Part shown: positions 1,978 through 8,154 of the stretch, piece after piece
Numbering within the stretch: position 1 is the stretch's first letter
Layout: the number at the start of each line of letters is the position of its first letter
IMG/VR virus record: IMGVR_UViG_2724679140_000014
Reading direction: 5' to 3' (one strand)
Source of the DNA: a virus
Lineage: Duplodnaviria > Heunggongvirae > Uroviricota > Caudoviricetes
Length of the DNA: 13,036 bases
Notes under the pieces: generated by a model
Database searches by the model: none
Told to the model about the DNA's origin: nothing
What the model saw: the letters and a program-made list of their open reading frames with translations, nothing else
Program-made: the position numbers and the translations under genes

Positions 1978-2259
1978 TGGTGTGAGGCGTAACGCGATGA
2001 ACATAACAAAAAGCGCCCCGTTGCCGGAGCGCCCTTGCGAACAATTAACCTGCTGCGAAAAAAATGGATCAGTGCAGGGGAATTATATCAACCGTGTGGC
2101 GAAGCGCCACAATTGCCGGATAACAGGCAAAACAAAGGCCACCCGCTACGGTGGCCCCTCGACACAAGCTACACGTTATCCCCAACGCATGAGCATAGCC
2201 AACAATGCCACATTTGCGGCTGGTGGGCAATGTGATCAGTGTGCTGGCTTGCTGGTGGG

Positions 2260-2457
2260 CTATTCCTGCTCTTTAGTATCGCCATGCTGCGATGTTTTCC
2301 AGGCATGCGATCCCATTTTTGTGCGCCTGTACTCTTTAAGGAATTTCTCAAGAGCAAACGAACAAGGTGCGAATCTTTCCTGTTCTTGTTCGCTTACCGC
2401 ATTTTTGCGTTGTTTTTTCCTGGATGAGGATAATTTCTTTAATGATTTGTCAGTCAT
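2260..2457 (-). CDS. Possible small basic protein (65 aa), weakly supported
   Basis: ORF just downstream of the 2515-2694 gene on the same strand. It ends in ..KEQE like that gene, and the 3' end repeats the DNA motif TCCTGCTCTTT (2264-2274 and 2518-2528). Weak RBS. Confidence 0.2.
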   Translation of the reverse strand: MTDKSLKKLSSSRKKQRKNAVSEQEQERFAPCSFALEKFLKEYRRTKMGSHAWKTSQHGDTKEQE

Positions 2458-2514
2458 CGTATATACCTGTAACCCTGTGCGCCACAGTTCATCACTCCAC
2501 GGCGCTAGTGATGG

Positions 2515-2694
2515 TTACTCCTGCTCTTTGGCCTTGCGACGCTGGCGGCGTTTGATCTCGCCGCGCATGGCTGCACTTATAAACTGCCCTGTACTTTCGC
2601 CTTCTTCTTTCACGTTTTCCATGCCTTCAATAATTTCATGGGCAATACGTGCAGTTACAGATTGTGATTTTGCATTCTTTGGACCTGTTGCCAT
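2515..2694 (-). CDS. Hypothetical small basic protein (59 aa, MATGPKNAKSQ..RRQRRKAKEQE)
   Basis: Internal ATG of the 2515-2733 ORF preceded by a strong RBS (AAGGAG, 6-nt spacer); a promoter-like -35/-10 (TTCAAA/TATATT on the minus strand) and a GTGTAAGACA operator-like site lie immediately upstream. Confidence 0.45.
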   Translation of the reverse strand: MATGPKNAKSQSVTARIAHEIIEGMENVKEEGESTGQFISAAMRGEIKRRQRRKAKEQE

Positions 2695-2715
2695 GTCTAA
2701 CTCCTTATGTTGTTG

Positions 2716-2796
2716 GTGTAAGACAATATACACGAAAAAAAATTATTTTGAAGGCTTGACGTGTAAGACACTTGTATTTTACATTGTGTCTTACAC
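2716..2796. promoter_or_regulatory. Divergent promoter/operator region with three copies of a 10-bp GTGTAAGACA motif
   Basis: GTGTAAGACA at 2716-2725 and 2761-2770 (direct) and TGTCTTACAC at 2787-2796 (inverted); TTGACG -35-like at 2756-2761 on the + strand; minus-strand -35/-10 candidates at 2749-2754 and 2726-2731. Confidence 0.5.
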
Positions 2797-2893
2797 CTTG
2801 TTAATGCAAGGCACAGAAACGACGAAACCCCGCACTGTAGGAGCAGTAACGGGGCTTCTAACCACCAACGATAGCAGAAGTATCGAGGTAGCT

Positions 2894-3433
2894 ATGAGAA
2901 ATCATACCACACACCCGCAAGGGCGGGACTCGCACAACCTGAATAAAGCGGGTATGAAAAACCTGTTGATCGCCACTGCCAGCCAGGGCTATGATTTACC
3001 CGCACCAGCAAAATCTGGTGCCGGGATTGGCGTCCTGGTATTTAACGAAGCGCACAACACGCGCCCTGCGTGTTTTTTTGTGCCGGATAGTCACACCTTA
3101 TCAATGGTGGGCTGTATGGGGGCGGAGCAATCCGCGCCGGGTTCTTCGTTAACCGGTTACGCCAACCCTGTACAGTCCACCGCCAGCGAAATTGGCGTTT
3201 CCTGCGGTGGGTTTATTAAACCTAACGAAGAGGCTGCCAACATGGCTACTACCCCTACCCTTGTACATTCTCAAACTGCCTTTATCTGGCGCTTTATCAT
3301 CTTTGGCGCGTCAGAGTCCCAAATCATCCACGTCACCGCCTGGACGGAACGCGAAGCGCGTAACCATTGCCCGTCAGGTTGTGTCGCTGTATTCGCCGCC
3401 CGTATTCGCCAGGGGGTGCACCATGTGCAATAA
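2894..3433 (+). CDS. Possible CDS (179 aa) of unknown function; the coding part of a long stop-free frame
   Basis: 3' portion of the 483-aa ORF. GAGG 5 nt upstream of the ATG at 2894 and a hairpin (2822-2855) in the putative leader. Ala/Gly/Ser/Thr-rich composition is atypical, so this may be non-coding. Confidence 0.25.
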   Translation: MRNHTTHPQGRDSHNLNKAGMKNLLIATASQGYDLPAPAKSGAGIGVLVFNEAHNTRPACFFVPDSHTLSMVGCMGAEQSAPGSSLTGYANPVQSTASEIGVSCGGFIKPNEEAANMATTPTLVHSQTAFIWRFIIFGASESQIIHVTAWTEREARNHCPSGCVAVFAARIRQGVHHVQ

Positions 3434-4119: not shown

Positions 4120-4434
4120 ATGAAACAGAAAATTTCTGGCTTTACTGCCAGCGGCCCCGCTCGGCCTGAAATCCGCCCCGGCGATATTTTCAAAGATAAA
4201 TATGGTGGACGAATAACGATAAAAACCGTTGACGATTTTCGCGTGACTTATATTCGCGAAGGTTATGCGCATCCCTGCGTGTCGTCACATATGCGTTTTG
4301 AGAGTGAATTCACCCTGGTAAGCAAAGCACCACCAGCGAACTTAAGCGACATCGACAGAATCATGCGCGTTACAGGTATGGAACGCATTAAGGCAGTACG
4401 TGAAATTATTCGTGAACGGGGAAAAGCAAAATGA
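4120..4434 (+). CDS. Hypothetical protein (104 aa) immediately upstream of, and overlapping, the replication gene
   Basis: ORF whose stop overlaps the start of the 710-aa gene (ATGA at 4431-4434). Confidence 0.5.
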   Translation: MKQKISGFTASGPARPEIRPGDIFKDKYGGRITIKTVDDFRVTYIREGYAHPCVSSHMRFESEFTLVSKAPPANLSDIDRIMRVTGMERIKAVREIIRERGKAK

Positions 4435-6563
4435 AACTGGCACCGAACGTAAAACTGTTACCGAAAGATAAAGGCGAGGATGCAGTGATTTTTGCGGGGG
4501 ATGACGCATACAGCCACGCAGAGCATTACATGCAGGGCGGAGAAGCCAGAAAGCGCGGCGACAAAATACCACCTGTTTATCTCGGACGGCGTGACCTGGG
4601 TAATCTGGAAAACCTGCGTATTGTGGATGAGGGTCGGTCACGCGCCATCGTCAGACGTGCCGGAAAACTGGATGACAAACTGGCGCTACAGATTGAAACC
4701 CTGCTGGCAGTGGCTGGTGTTAAGGAAGCCTGTTTTTGTGACGAGAACGGCGATTTACTGGAGGACTGGACACCACAGCTTGCCCGACTGAAAGACGAAT
4801 ACGAGCGCGGGGAAAGTCTGGTGTTGCCCTTAAAGAAAAAAATCACAGAAAACCAGGGCGATGATGAATTAAAGCCCCGCGTTGAAAGCCGCGCCGATGG
4901 TGTTTTCTGGGTAACGCCAAAAGTTGACAAGCAGTCAGGCGAAATTATCCGGCCTGAGACGTGGTTATGTTCCCCGCTTGAACTACTGGGAACGGGGACA
5001 ATCGGCAAAGAGCATTACCGCGTGATGCGCTGGAAGAAACCCGCAAACCATGAAGTCATCACAATGGCGGTTCCGTGCGGGGGCATTGGCGACCGTGACG
5101 GCTGGCGGTTGCTGAAAGACCACGGCCTGAACGTGACAACCAACGGCAAATACAGGGCTATCCTGGCTGACTGGATGCAGTTAAGCGGAAACCATGAGGA
5201 ATGGCAGTTAAGCACAACAACGGGCTGGCATTTTGGCGCGTACATCATGCCGGACGGTTCGGTCATTGGTGATTGCGAAAAGCCAGTCCTGTTTACCGGA
5301 AAAACGGCTGCTGTTAATGGTTATTCCGTGGCAGGAACGGCGGAGGGCTGGCGCGATACCGTTGCGCGGCTGGCTGGTGGTAATCCGTCCATGATGCTGG
5401 GTGTGGCGGTATCGTTATCTGCACCATTAATCGGGCTGGTGGGCGCTGACGGCTTCGGGGTACATCTTTTCGAACAGTCATCGGCAGGTAAGACCACAAC
5501 GCAGAACATCGCATCAAGTTTATGGGGAGAGCCGGACGCGCAGCGGCTGACCTGGTACGGCACAGCGTTAGGTATCGCCAACGAAGCAGAGGCACACAAT
5601 GACGGGCTTTTACCCCTGGATGAAATAGGCCAGGCCGGAAACGCGCGGGAGGTGTCCACGTCAGCCTATACGCTGTTTAACGGTTCCGGGAAATTACAGG
5701 GGGCGAAGGACGGCGGCAACAGGGAGATCAAACACTGGCGCACGGTGGCAATCAGCACCGGAGAAATGGACGTTGAGACATTCCTCAAAACGGAGGGGAT
5801 AAAAGTCAAGGCGGGGCAGCTTGTCCGCCTGCTTAACGTGCCAATGGAAAAAGCCACGCAGTTTCACGAATACAGCACCGGAAAGGCGCACGCAGACGCG
5901 TTAAAAGATGCCTGGACAGAAAATCACGGGGCGGCGGGGCGTGAGTGGGTTAAATGGCTGGCAGACCACCAGCAGGAGACAAAGGACACGGTAAGGGCAT
6001 GCCGTGAACGGTGGCGCAACCTGATACCGGAGAGCTACGGCGAGCAGGTACACCGCGTGGGTGAGCGTTTCGCCATACTGGAGGCCGCGCTTGTGCTTTC
6101 CGGTCATGTGACTGGCTGGGATGAGCAGGAATGCCGTGATGCCATTCAGCATAATTTTAATGCCTGGGTGAAGGAATTCGGTACGGGCAACAGGGAACAC
6201 AGGCAGATTATTGAACAGGCTGAGGCGTTTCTTGCGGCCTATGGCCTGAGCAGGTTCGCCCCTGTCAATTATGACCCTGCCAGCCTGCCGATTTCAGAAC
6301 TGTACGGCTACAGGGAAAGCGACGGGCGTTATGACGAGCCTGTTTTGTTTTACGTGCTGCCGGAGCCGTTTAGCTCACATGTGGCGAAGGGATTTAACAA
6401 GGATGCCGTAGCAAAGACCCTTCATGAAGCCGGAATGCTGAGAAAACCAGCCAGCGGGCGGGGATGGCAAATCAGGACACCACGACTAAAACACCTGAAA
6501 GGGGCGCGGCTAAGAGTGTATGGCCTTTTGCTGACACAGGACCACGATGCTGAAAATGATTAA
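4431..6563 (+). CDS. Satellite replication initiator: primase/helicase-like protein with a P-loop NTPase domain (DUF927/D5-like), 710 aa
   Basis: Large ORF with a Walker-A-like motif (FEQSSAGKTT), placed directly upstream of an iteron array as in PICI pri-rep modules. Family assignment is from recalled domain architecture, not a search. Confidence 0.75.
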   Translation: MKLAPNVKLLPKDKGEDAVIFAGDDAYSHAEHYMQGGEARKRGDKIPPVYLGRRDLGNLENLRIVDEGRSRAIVRRAGKLDDKLALQIETLLAVAGVKEACFCDENGDLLEDWTPQLARLKDEYERGESLVLPLKKKITENQGDDELKPRVESRADGVFWVTPKVDKQSGEIIRPETWLCSPLELLGTGTIGKEHYRVMRWKKPANHEVITMAVPCGGIGDRDGWRLLKDHGLNVTTNGKYRAILADWMQLSGNHEEWQLSTTTGWHFGAYIMPDGSVIGDCEKPVLFTGKTAAVNGYSVAGTAEGWRDTVARLAGGNPSMMLGVAVSLSAPLIGLVGADGFGVHLFEQSSAGKTTTQNIASSLWGEPDAQRLTWYGTALGIANEAEAHNDGLLPLDEIGQAGNAREVSTSAYTLFNGSGKLQGAKDGGNREIKHWRTVAISTGEMDVETFLKTEGIKVKAGQLVRLLNVPMEKATQFHEYSTGKAHADALKDAWTENHGAAGREWVKWLADHQQETKDTVRACRERWRNLIPESYGEQVHRVGERFAILEAALVLSGHVTGWDEQECRDAIQHNFNAWVKEFGTGNREHRQIIEQAEAFLAAYGLSRFAPVNYDPASLPISELYGYRESDGRYDEPVLFYVLPEPFSSHVAKGFNKDAVAKTLHEAGMLRKPASGRGWQIRTPRLKHLKGARLRVYGLLLTQDHDAEND

Positions 6564-6588
6564 TCTCGCGTGTAGGAGGTAAAAATAT

Positions 6589-6900
6589 GTTGTCCCAGTC
6601 GTCCCAGTAAGCAATAAGCAATCGTAACACATTGAATTACATATATTTCACTTACAAAAAGTGGGACAACAGCGGGACAATATTCAGGCATTTTGGGACA
6701 ACATAGCGGCATTTTGGGACGACACGACATGTATTTTTTACCGTGCTGGAGGGTGGGACAACACAAAAAACCTCATGTCGTCCCAAAATCGCCTTATGTC
6801 GTCCCACTTTGTGGAGTGTGTTTTTAATAAAATCAACAGGTTAACATTAAGTGGGACAACCGGGACAACTGGGACGACGTGTTTTGTATATATATATACG
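6589..6900. repeat. Iteron-type origin of replication: at least 13 copies of a 9-10-bp GGGACRAC motif in both orientations around AT-rich spacers, ending in a (TA)n tract
   Basis: Forward copies at 6661-6670, 6672-6681, 6693-6702, 6714-6723, 6753-6762, 6851-6860, 6861-6869, 6870-6878; inverted copies (GTYGTCCCA) at 6589-6598, 6599-6607, 6777-6786, 6798-6807; AT-rich blocks at 6608-6660 and 6880-6900 (GTATATATATATATAC). Confidence 0.7.
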
Positions 6901-6919
6901 AAAAATCGAGATCTGAACT

Positions 6920-7162
6920 ATGAAGTTAAACCGCAAACAACCACACTACCGCGCCATTGACCTTACAGAGCACTGGCTGAGGGTGGCGATAAAAATCATC
7001 GACCGCAACGCGGGAGAAGGATACGCGAAAGCACATCCCGAACTGATAAGCGCATTCATGGCCACGGCGGCGGCAAATTTTGCCACGCTGACAGAGCGGG
7101 AGATTGCCGAAGCGGAACAGGTGACAACCATCAACGTTAAAACCGGAGAGCAGACAGCATGA
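6920..7162 (+). CDS. Hypothetical small protein (80 aa)
   Basis: ORF just after the ori; stop overlaps the SSB start (ATGA). Weak RBS. Confidence 0.4.
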   Translation: MKLNRKQPHYRAIDLTEHWLRVAIKIIDRNAGEGYAKAHPELISAFMATAAANFATLTEREIAEAEQVTTINVKTGEQTA

Positions 7163-7581
7163 CAGCACAGATAGCAGCTTACGGGCGGCTGGTGGCTGAC
7201 CCGCAGTTAAAGACCACCAGCAAGGGGACACAAATGGCGATGGTGAGTATGGCGGTTCCCCTGCCGTGCAGCCAGGCAGATGACGGAACGGCGACGATGT
7301 GGTTATCCGTCCTGGCGTTTGGCAGACAGGCCGATGCACTGGCCAGGCACCAGAAAGGCGAACTGGTGAGCGTGGCGGGTAACATGCAGGTAAGCCAGTG
7401 GACAGGCCAGAACGGCGAAACGCGGCAGGGCTGGCAGGTCATCGCAGACAGCGTAATCAGTGCGCGAACGGCGCGACCGGGCGGCAAAAAAGGTCAACAG
7501 GGCCAGGCTACTGACGCACTGAACAGGGCAAAACAACAGGCGGGAAATGATGACCCGTACGGGGATAACATCCCGTTTTAA
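7159..7581 (+). CDS. ssb: Single-stranded DNA-binding protein (SSB-like), 140 aa
   Basis: OB-fold-like N-terminal pattern (..YGRLVADPQLKTT..G...WLSVLAFGRQAD.LA...KG..V.V.G......W....G..R..W.V.) and an acidic C-terminal tip ending DDPYGDNIPF, resembling the SSB ..DDDIPF tail. Confidence 0.75.
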   Translation: MTAQIAAYGRLVADPQLKTTSKGTQMAMVSMAVPLPCSQADDGTATMWLSVLAFGRQADALARHQKGELVSVAGNMQVSQWTGQNGETRQGWQVIADSVISARTARPGGKKGQQGQATDALNRAKQQAGNDDPYGDNIPF

Positions 7582-7617: not shown

Positions 7618-8154
7618 ATGACAACGCTGACCATTAACCGAAAACCGAAAGGCATTTACGGCACGCAGTCAGAAACGACGCAGGCGGCACAGCAGCAGGA
7701 TAAAACCACATCGGCGCATAAAGTGATACCCGGCAATCAGAACGCACAGCAGAGCCGCAAAGGGCAGCCCACAGGGGTGACACCGTGGCGGCATATGACC
7801 AAACGCCAGCGCAAAAACCGCAGACGCGTTAACCGCCTTATTGAGCTGTGGCCTGATTTATTCAGCCGGGAAACACCGAAGCCGCTTAAGGTGGGGATAT
7901 TCGACGACCTGATGCAGGATCTCGCCGTCAGGGGGCTGGCATTCGGGCCAGGGGCATTACGTGCGACGCTGGCATCTTATGCGCAGTCTCCGCGCTATTA
8001 CCGCGCCTTAATGGCTGGTGGTGCACGTTACGACCTGAAAGGCCAGCCATGTGGGGAAGTGACACCACAGGAACAGCAGGAGGCAGAAACGCGGCTGGCA
8101 GCACTGAATGAAAAGCGCAAACGTCAGGCGACAAAGGAGAGGACAGGCGCATGA
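7618..8154 (+). CDS. ProQ/FinO-domain RNA-binding protein (RNA chaperone-like), 178 aa
   Basis: Core region LIELWPDLF..PKPLKVGIFDDL....ALRATLASYAQSPRYYRAL..GGARYDLKGQPCGEVT matches the ProQ/FinO fold signature as in E. coli ProQ (..[43 protein letters not shown]..). Confidence 0.75.
   Translation: MTTLTINRKPKGIYGTQSETTQAAQQQDKTTSAHKVIPGNQNAQQSRKGQPTGVTPWRHMTKRQRKNRRRVNRLIELWPDLFSRETPKPLKVGIFDDLMQDLAVRGLAFGPGALRATLASYAQSPRYYRALMAGGARYDLKGQPCGEVTPQEQQEAETRLAALNEKRKRQATKERTGA

Follow-up and report, generated by a model that had tools for sequence, protein, structure and literature searches.

The DNA analysed here (the window) is a 13,036-bp stretch of a Caudoviricetes record, IMGVR_UViG_2724679140_000014. 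Between the stop codon of its replication gene, rep, and the next ATG (6920) lies a non-coding region of 356 bp (6564-6919), which very probably serves a Gram-negative phage-inducible chromosomal island (PICI) at tRNA-Pro as its vegetative replication origin and would work like the origins of EcCICFT073 and of the pathogenicity islands found in Staphylococcus aureus (SaPIs). Its sequence strongly supports an origin of the PICI/SaPI type for the DUF927 Rep lineage, a kind of origin that is already known. The first-pass annotation of this DNA had proposed a Rep-bound iteron origin with AT-rich unwinding segments. That proposal is strongly supported by a conserved grammar of sites, by the co-variation of these sites with the C-terminal domain of Rep and by the analogy with EcCICFT073. 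The repeat statistics, the grammar, the co-variation, the homology of Rep and the PICI context are all direct observations.

The iteron array downstream of rep

The octamer GGGACRAC is present in 11 exact copies in the window, every one of them within 6589-6878, for a chance expectation of 0.78 on average and 3 at most in dinucleotide-preserving shuffles. With one mismatch tolerated, the region gains just one more site, GGGACAAT at 6674, a position that reads GGGACAAC in two relatives. The array was also compared with those of 16 distant Rep relatives from other genera, four further Escherichia coli alleles and one deposited Klebsiella phage genome. The first-pass annotation had counted at least 13 copies, a number that comes down to 12, namely the 11 exact sites and the GGGACAAT variant. 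It was right in describing them as bidirectional, since four sites are on the minus strand and eight on the plus strand, and in placing them just downstream of the replication gene: the sites start right after the rep stop, with iteron 1 beginning about 24-26 nt past the TAA (6561-6563). The extended form of the iteron is TGGGACRAC and four of the 12 sites continue as TGGGACRACAT.

The twelve sites form two six-site modules, each with two sites facing left, then 45-57 bp of AT-rich spacer, then sites facing right, and with a variable linker between the modules. The left arm of module A consists of iterons 1 and 2 (starts 6589 and 6598; 6589-6605, minus strand), which read GGGACAAC and GGGACGAC with a 9-bp spacing. 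Its right arm consists of iterons 3-6 (starts 6663, 6674, 6695 and 6716; 6663-6723, plus strand), which read GGGACAAC, the GGGACAAT variant, GGGACAAC and GGGACGAC and are spaced by 11/21/21, with CATTTT tracts (T-tracts) phased with the 21-bp repeats. Further on are iteron 7 (6755-6762, plus strand, GGGACAAC), iterons 8 and 9 on the minus strand (starts 6777 and 6798; 6777-6805, GGGACGAC twice, 21-bp spacing), each preceded by an ATG on the plus strand (ATGTCGTCCCA), and iterons 10-12 on the plus strand (starts 6853, 6862 and 6871; 6853-6878), which read GGGACAAC, GGGACAAC and GGGACGAC with a 9-bp spacing. From start to start, the complete series of spacings in the window is 9, 65, 11, 21, 21, 39, 22, 21, 55, 9 and 9.

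AT-rich segments are interleaved with the iterons, as had been noticed at first reading. Spacer S1 (6606-6662, 57 bp, 74% AT) is the candidate DNA-unwinding region of module A; its equivalents in all relatives measure 44-68 bp and are 73-84% AT, with a sequence scarcely conserved. Spacer S3 (6806-6852) is 47 bp long and 72% AT. In relatives, this second AT-rich spacer measures 43-67 bp and the final three forward sites are spaced by about 9 bp. S3 contains a match to the consensus core of integration host factor (IHF), AATCAACAGGTTA at 6831-6843, which is found as a perfect match in L027 and with one mismatch in L002, and which we regard as a putative IHF site. Linker S2 (6724-6754, 31 bp, 55% AT) joins the two six-iteron modules and is variable: the spacing between iterons 6 and 7 ranges from 17 to 169 bp among relatives, and this is the sole spot that tolerates large insertions or deletions. 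Where S2 is longer (6724-6754 in the window; L004, L018, L010 and L027), iteron 6 is followed by another semi-conserved motif, TTTTT-RCC-TGGCTGG, which is missing where the linker is 17-19 bp.

The last iteron is followed by a TA element (6879-6905), GTGTTTTGTATATATATATACGAAAAA, which can be written GTGTTTTG(TA)6CGAAAAA. The (TA)6-7 tract described at first reading is indeed there, as a (TA)6 at 6887-6898. The consensus TTTTG-YWT-ATATATA-(CG)AAAA is found after the last iteron in the full-length origins examined, independently of iteron class (the window, L002, L005-L007, L009, L010, L014-L016, L018, L027 and L030), and it ends 15-40 nt ahead of the start of the next gene. Three of the 12 least stable 25-mers of the window fall in the origin, at 6882-6906, 6635-6659 and 6825-6849. 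That at 6882-6906 ranks third of the 13 kb, and the TA element is the least stable duplex of the origin. It could be the start of melting, a priming site or a site for a host factor.

The origin region is found in 23 of 5,426 complete E. coli genomes, in one copy each and always in the chromosome. When the window is aligned with the 82%-identical origin of L002, identity is 95.8% in the columns of iterons against 75.2% in those of spacers (Fisher p=2.5e-6), and the four differences observed within iterons all concern the degenerate R or bring a site back to the consensus C. The iteron sites are thus under purifying selection. At larger distance, relatives retain the orientation --+++++--+++ and a spacing of ~9/63/11/21/21/variable/23/21/51/9/9. 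This layout is kept in Cedecea, Winslowiella, Tenebrionibacter, Apirhabdus, Citrobacter, Pantoea, Rahnella and the 106-kb Klebsiella phage record. In nearly all relatives with a mapped rep stop, the two reverse sites stand 24-31 nt beyond it, L029 being different. The 11/21/21 spacing is common to the nine full-length origins for which the four sites concerned could be matched, and is also observed in L006-L010, L015 and L018. Comparison of iteron positions in related elements had been put forward as a test of the origin, and its outcome is favourable: positions are conserved, with the same grammar across genera.

While the scaffold is constant, the site itself, of 8-9 nt, is exchanged among relatives. 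Nine classes were distinguished, which are GGGACRAC, TGAACCAAC, TGAACCACG, TAACCCAC, TAACCCGC, TGAACCGRM, GGGAYAAG, GGGACAAG and GAGACAAC. The full grammar is found with TGAACCAAC, TGAACCACG, TAACCCAC, TGAACCGRM or GGGAYAAG as iterons in other genera or in the phage record; TAACCCGC (E. coli) and GGGACAAG were seen as half origins only, and GAGACAAC (E. coli) in a rearranged layout. A constant scaffold with an exchanged recognition sequence points to an origin read by a protein, and neither chance nor coding potential nor an RNA element would easily account for it. A search of Rfam at permissive threshold gave no match in the origin, its sole hits being isrK, C4 and a1b1 near 3000-3190. Open reading frames (ORFs) covering it (6661-6960 on the plus strand and 6560-6766 on the minus strand) were rejected as coding: they are unannotated, the insertions and deletions in spacers are not multiples of three, and their length differs in relatives.

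Module A also exists alone, in E. albertii and in a very common E. coli allele group. These half origins (L004, 5137-5375, in E. albertii; L026 and L028 in E. coli) have only iterons 1-6; nothing is present of module B, of the TA element or of the 80-aa ORF that follows the origin in the window, and the sequence joins straight to the ribosome-binding region of ssb, the gene of the single-strand DNA-binding protein (SSB). As the corresponding Rep clusters range in size from several hundred members to over 1,000, the half origin is a common configuration. Megablast of the rep-ori segment against phage records returned only two partial matches, at 73% identity, one being Klebsiella phage P12620-1 (L030, PQ569648.1, 98633-101200). 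There, a DUF927 Rep is followed by the 12-site grammar, with 11 exact TGAACCAAC and one degenerate copy, and by the TA element. The record, of 106.5 kb, was deposited as a phage, and the cassette is thus not confined to small satellites; it may be a phage-plasmid or contain an island.

Of the nine specificity classes, at least six keep the invariant 12-site grammar. It is tempting to see in it a platform that would load two Rep hexamers, with one iteron per subunit, the class-independent TTTTG-TATATATA-CGAAAA serving as a shared site for melting, priming or a host factor and the half origins being single-module versions. We hold this idea to be tentative and rather doubtful. If true, such a two-hexamer platform would provide a model, readable from sequence, for the positioning of self-loading MCM-like helicases on DNA.

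Rep and the pairing of its C-terminal domain with iteron class

The rep gene (4431-6563, plus strand; the RefSeq start is 12 nt upstream, at 4419) encodes a DUF927-family initiator-helicase of 710 aa. Rep matches Pfam PF06048 (DUF927) with E=8e-46, the ‘Pathogenicity island protein’ of PDB entry 8tch with E=3e-15 over residues 212-602, and the SCCmec Cch helicase (PDB 5dgk) with E=2e-3 by sequence. A full-length AlphaFold model was built from a 40-sequence alignment, with a mean predicted local distance difference test (pLDDT) of 61 and values below 50 for residues 368-475 of the ATPase core and for 583-710. It served only to recover Cch by Foldseek, where 5dgk is the sole significant match (E=5e-9 with this low-confidence model). 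The best PHROG is phrog_1139, ‘DNA primase’. The Walker A motif GKTT (353-356) is invariant across 40 homologues, and the AAA+ (DUF927, MCM-like) ATPase core to which it belongs is homologous to that of the SaPI Rep/Cch group. A search with Rep collected 1,833 proteins with E <= 1e-10. Comparison with the Rep of L026 gave the module boundaries: N-terminal domain 1-120, helicase core 121-588 and C-terminal domain 589-710.

In the DUF927 family, each iteron class goes with its own sequence in the last ~50 residues of Rep. The C-terminal ‘wing’ segment reads ...SGRGWQIRTPRLKHLKGARLRVY for GGGACRAC, ...SGEGWQIRTPRLKHMKGARLRVY for GGGACAAG and ...GRGYQRKSPRIDGRQINVY for TGAACCAAC, while TAACCCAC and TAACCCGC share ...R(R/G)(Y/H)KKKAL...GGKQHVFY. 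Two natural mosaics are particularly informative. The Rep of L026 (E. coli) is 98.5% identical to that of the window over 167-560 and at least 98% over 121-588, and falls to ~40% over 1-120 and to ~27% over 589-710 (wing segment); its iterons are TAACCCGC. Conversely, the Rep of L027 has a core 82.5% identical and an identical wing segment (RGWQIRTPRLKHLKGARLRVYGLL), and its iterons are GGGACRAC too. Taken together, these mosaics, in which iteron class goes with Rep residues ~589-710 and not with the core, make this part of Rep the probable determinant of specificity. The identities also point to recent recombination that swapped the N-terminal domain on one hand, and the C-terminal domain with the origin on the other hand, independently of the helicase core. 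The class of iteron goes with the Rep allele and not with the neighbouring DUF4222 protein: two islands with an identical WP_000770163.1 differ in both Rep family and repeats. This one-to-one match of C-terminal domain and iteron is consistent with a functional coupling, without amounting to a proof of it.

By homology with the SaPIs and EcCICFT073 we infer how the origin could be used, namely the binding of Rep through its C-terminal domain, the place of melting, the loading of one hexamer per module and any contribution of IHF. After induction and excision of the island, Rep, as a Cch/SaPI-Rep-like AAA+ protein of the DUF927 family and presumably a self-loading initiator-helicase, would bind the twelve TGGGACRAC iterons through its C-terminal ~120 residues and oligomerise on the DNA. 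It would then melt the adjoining AT-rich segment (S1, S3 or the TA element) with no need for a separate loader, and load itself to serve as replicative helicase. The unwound strands would be coated by the SSB that the island encodes just downstream.

Several points weigh against such a reading. The C-terminal domain has a pLDDT below 50 in both AlphaFold models (44 when modelled alone), so that its presumed winged-helix fold, which is borrowed from the SaPI Reps, is not confirmed by them, and its profile gave chance-level matches only against PDB sequences. Rep has no equivalent of the ~240-residue N-terminal extension, annotated as primase in phrog_1139, of longer relatives, which are 894-978 aa long with a different and larger N-terminal extension. 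With two modules and three AT-rich segments, the region is also more complex than ‘two iteron sets flanking one AT-rich region’. Finally, the DNA encoding the C-terminal domain adjoins the origin, and a single recombination event would move both, which confounds the co-variation.

Other readings of the repeats and of the mini-ORF

Could the repeats be mainly operators, controlling the ssb-proQ-perC operon or rep itself, and not an origin? Sites for the initiator commonly double in autoregulation in iteron plasmids, and iterons 10-12 with the TA element stand 15-40 nt before the start of the next gene in all relatives. Scanning 6300-7200 with sigma-70-like promoter and terminator consensus sequences called none in the intergenic 6564-6919; one promoter-like match (6531-6560) and one terminator-like match are both inside the 3′ end of rep and at chance level. 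As no promoter was called at the TA element, a promoter role for it is not supported. Moreover, 12 sites spread over 290 bp with AT-rich spacers, following a helicase gene and co-varying with its C-terminal domain, have the appearance of an origin, and the equivalent region of EcCICFT073 is needed in cis for replication (PMC6092414). A main role as operators is thus very unlikely, a secondary regulatory role being possible. A packaging site, cosB- or pac-like, bound by the DUF1441/Nu1-like protein and TerS of the island, seems to us the least credible of the alternatives. It would make sense of the two small-terminase-like proteins encoded by the island and of the IHF-core match at 6831-6843, as lambda cosB combines repeated sites with an IHF site. 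Against it, L002 holds all 12 iterons without DUF1441 or TerS genes, islands with different packaging modules share the grammar, and iteron class tracks the C-terminal domain of Rep.

A further possibility concerns the beginning of the array. The pre-iteron element (6568-6586, plus strand, GCGTGTAGGAGGTAAAAAT) is the local version of a semi-conserved RYRYGAG(G) followed by an A/T run and holds, at 6574-6579, the perfect Shine-Dalgarno (SD) hexamer AGGAGG pointed out in the first-pass annotation. The 7-codon ORF that had been described over the first two iterons exists as well (6587-6610, plus strand; ATG TTG TCC CAG TCG TCC CAG TAA, MLSQSSQ*), with two corrections: its ATG is at 6587-6589 and not at 6586, and the spacer from the SD is 7 nt instead of 6. 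If it were functional, its translation or occupancy by ribosomes on the read-through rep mRNA would modulate Rep binding or downstream expression, or a regulatory peptide would be made. The perfect AGGAGG at 7 nt from an ATG, on a strand probably transcribed within the rightward operon, speaks for this, as do the retention of the mini-ORF in sampled E. coli genomes at least 97% identical and the recurrence of a GAG(G) motif ahead of iteron 1 in several iteron classes, for instance ACATGTGTGAGGTAAAAAT in L016 and CTGTGTGAGGTAAAAAG in L028. Nevertheless, the mini-ORF with perfect SD and seven codons is restricted to that clade of at least 97% identity. In L003, with a 93% identical origin region, the hexamer is replaced by AGGCGG and the stop is lost by a change of TAA to AAA, which gives an ORF of 85 codons; in L002, at 82%, it is replaced by AGGGGG and the ORF is 50 codons long. 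L027, which has the same iterons, shows no SD-like match and an ATG-initiated ORF of 12 codons. All 12 iterons are retained in L002, L003 and L027.

In a set of 20 relatives, ORFs across iterons 1-2 measure 7-85 codons and agree neither in frame nor in start codon or SD-like match: the conservation of SD, start, stop and length or peptide that would mark a regulatory leader is not seen. The loss of the SD and of the stop in the 93% and 82% relatives that keep the 12 iterons speaks against the link between translation and Rep binding suggested at first reading, and the coincidence offered there as the alternative is what the data favour. The ATG comes from the CAT flank of a reverse-oriented iteron (ATGTYGTCCCA): with four of the 12 sites reading TGGGACRACAT, three of the four reverse sites open with ATG on the plus strand, and the 9-bp spacing of iterons 1 and 2 trivially keeps any reading frame open across both. 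AGGAGG looks like a feature of the DNA, a lineage-specific variant of the pre-iteron element, and not like a ribosome-binding site. We see no sign of selection for translation of the mini-ORF, which we judge incidental; it may be translated occasionally from read-through mRNA. A functional mini-ORF is accordingly very improbable, slightly less so than a packaging site and more so than operators.

The island and its place among known replication systems

The context of this origin is that of a Gram-negative PICI. The window, 100% identical to strain STEC276, represents nearly the whole of a ~14-kb island that is inserted between yejM and yejO, where tRNA-Pro has its 3′ end, in Shiga toxin-producing E. 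coli (STEC) strains. The island is flanked at tRNA-Pro by 17-bp direct repeats ~14.1 kb apart. It has the size (about 10-15 kb), the integrase and attachment site, the AlpA-type regulator, the rightward unidirectional operon and the packaging genes of such elements, with rep, ssb, perC and two terS-like genes present, and like them it has no complete set of phage morphogenesis genes. Fillol-Salom et al. 2018 (PMC6092414) list in their Table S1 PICIs at the yejM locus that have the same 413-aa integrase annotation; the att sequence given there for the yejM-luxR PICI (TTTGTAGTTATACG...) was not found in L001. The gene order is tyrosine integrase, AlpA-like helix-turn-helix protein (phrog ‘excisionase and transcriptional regulator’), a P1 ImmI-like block (c4 antisense RNA, isrK, icd-like, ash), DUF4222 and Rep. 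After the repeats come an 80-aa protein, SSB, a ProQ/FinO-domain protein, PerC and two small-terminase-like proteins.

The first gene past the origin (6920-7162, plus strand) encodes the conserved 80-aa protein (phrog_1231), which is lost together with module B in half-origin islands. It is followed by ssb (7159-7581, plus strand; Pfam SSB E=3.5e-16). The island SSB probably belongs to the replication module: ssb comes after the origin in the window, in EcCICFT073 and in most relatives with listed genes, ProQ taking this place in L029. Next to each other are a ProQ/FinO-domain RNA-binding protein (7618-8154) and a PerC-family regulator (8151-8438), a second PerC-family gene (12728-13036) being near the right end of the island.

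On the upstream side, Rfam identifies isrK (3002-3078, 80 bits) and the C4 antisense RNA (3100-3187, 75 bits) within 2989-3187 of the plus strand, and the a1/b1 targets of C4 at 2989-3041 score 44.5 bits, just below the gathering score of 46.7. Because these elements are just upstream of the icd-like and ash genes, the island appears to carry an antisense-RNA control module of the P1/P7 ImmI type. The c4 and isrK RNAs are obvious candidate partners of the ProQ/FinO protein. A 483-codon ORF in this part (1982-3433) is probably not a real gene; over this stretch RefSeq shows only the gene of the helix-turn-helix protein, a small ORF on the minus strand and a pseudogene of ash, and the icd-like gene comes just downstream. 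The two small-terminase-like genes are different and in opposite orientations, one DUF1441/Nu1-like (8731-9279, plus strand, phrog_141) and the other a TerS (9966-10568, minus strand, phrog_57). This suggests that the island can redirect the packaging of several types of helper, or that a remnant is present.

The present analysis annotates the origin, and the probable specificity determinant (Rep 589-710), of a DUF927-type PICI replicon widespread in Enterobacterales. The nine matched pairs of C-terminal domain and iteron, together with the natural domain swaps, could guide work on origin recognition by self-loading helicases of the SaPI/Cch type and on incompatibility between co-resident satellites. 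The analysis also disposes of the ‘perfect’ mini-ORF, which was tempting as a lead but false. What is accepted about PICI replication is unchanged, these pairs and swaps, the 6+6 grammar, the half origins and the TA element being useful leads rather than surprises.

Among the closest known systems is EcCICFT073. A rep-ori segment of this island replicates a temperature-sensitive plasmid and fails to do so when rep or ori is mutated, and the origin of Gram-negative PICIs is the region immediately 3′ of the initiator gene, where two iteron sets flank AT-rich DNA (PMC6092414). Region 6564-6919 has the same placement 3′ of the initiator gene, and its short iterons flank AT-rich DNA, in two tandem units. 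In EcCICFT073, the intergenic region at the same position carries ~11 copies of GGTAGAYA, which point in both directions. Both islands thus have the origin right after rep, with short bidirectional iterons around AT-rich DNA, within the order DUF4222-rep-origin-small ORF-ssb-perC, and the yejM-side tRNA-Pro locus is among the listed attachment sites of E. coli PICIs. The initiators differ, since that of EcCICFT073 is a 584-aa Rep of the ‘DNA primase family’ and EcCI11128 has a RepA-type helicase, whereas the Rep described here is a DUF927 protein of 710 aa. Iterons are GGTAGAYA or AAGTGGGGA in these islands and GGGACRAC here. The grammar differs too, that of the window being a fixed 12-site layout in two modules, and replication has been demonstrated for EcCICFT073 whereas our origin is read from sequence.

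SaPI Reps are self-loading initiator-helicases that read 6-12 iterons immediately 3′ of rep through a C-terminal winged-helix domain, and SaPI origins have at least two iterons on each side of an AT-rich region, in opposite directions (PMC9371898). Rep of the window is homologous to the SaPI Reps and Cch in sequence and fold (5dgk, 8tch), its origin is directly after rep, and each of the two modules fits the SaPI iteron description. On the other hand, host and lineage are Gram-negative here, the site core is of 8-9 nt instead of the penta- or hexanucleotides of SaPIs, and the window origin has two tandem modules and a conserved TA element.

The alpha protein of satellite phage P4 is a multifunctional primase-helicase that binds octamer iterons through its C-terminal domain, and P4 needs two iteron-bearing cis elements, ori and crr, kilobases apart. 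P4 is also a satellite of enterobacterial phages, its initiator is a helicase reading octamer iterons, and its cis elements are bipartite. PICI Pri-Rep proteins differ in sequence from P4 alpha (PMC6092414). As for the Rep described here, alpha belongs to another protein family, ori and crr are not in tandem after the gene, and the iteron sequence is different.

In classical iteron plasmids and replicons such as pSC101, R6K, RK2 and P1 oriR, iterons are direct repeats of 17-22 bp, and a small winged-helix initiator of the RepA type recruits host DnaA and DnaB. Initiator sites beside AT-rich DNA, a possible IHF-like site and matched specificities of iteron and initiator are common to these origins and to that of the window. 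An origin of the classical plasmid type was nevertheless rejected, given the 8-9-bp sites in both orientations, the 710-aa initiator that would itself be the helicase and the absence of DnaA boxes, a search for TTWTNCACA giving zero matches in the window.

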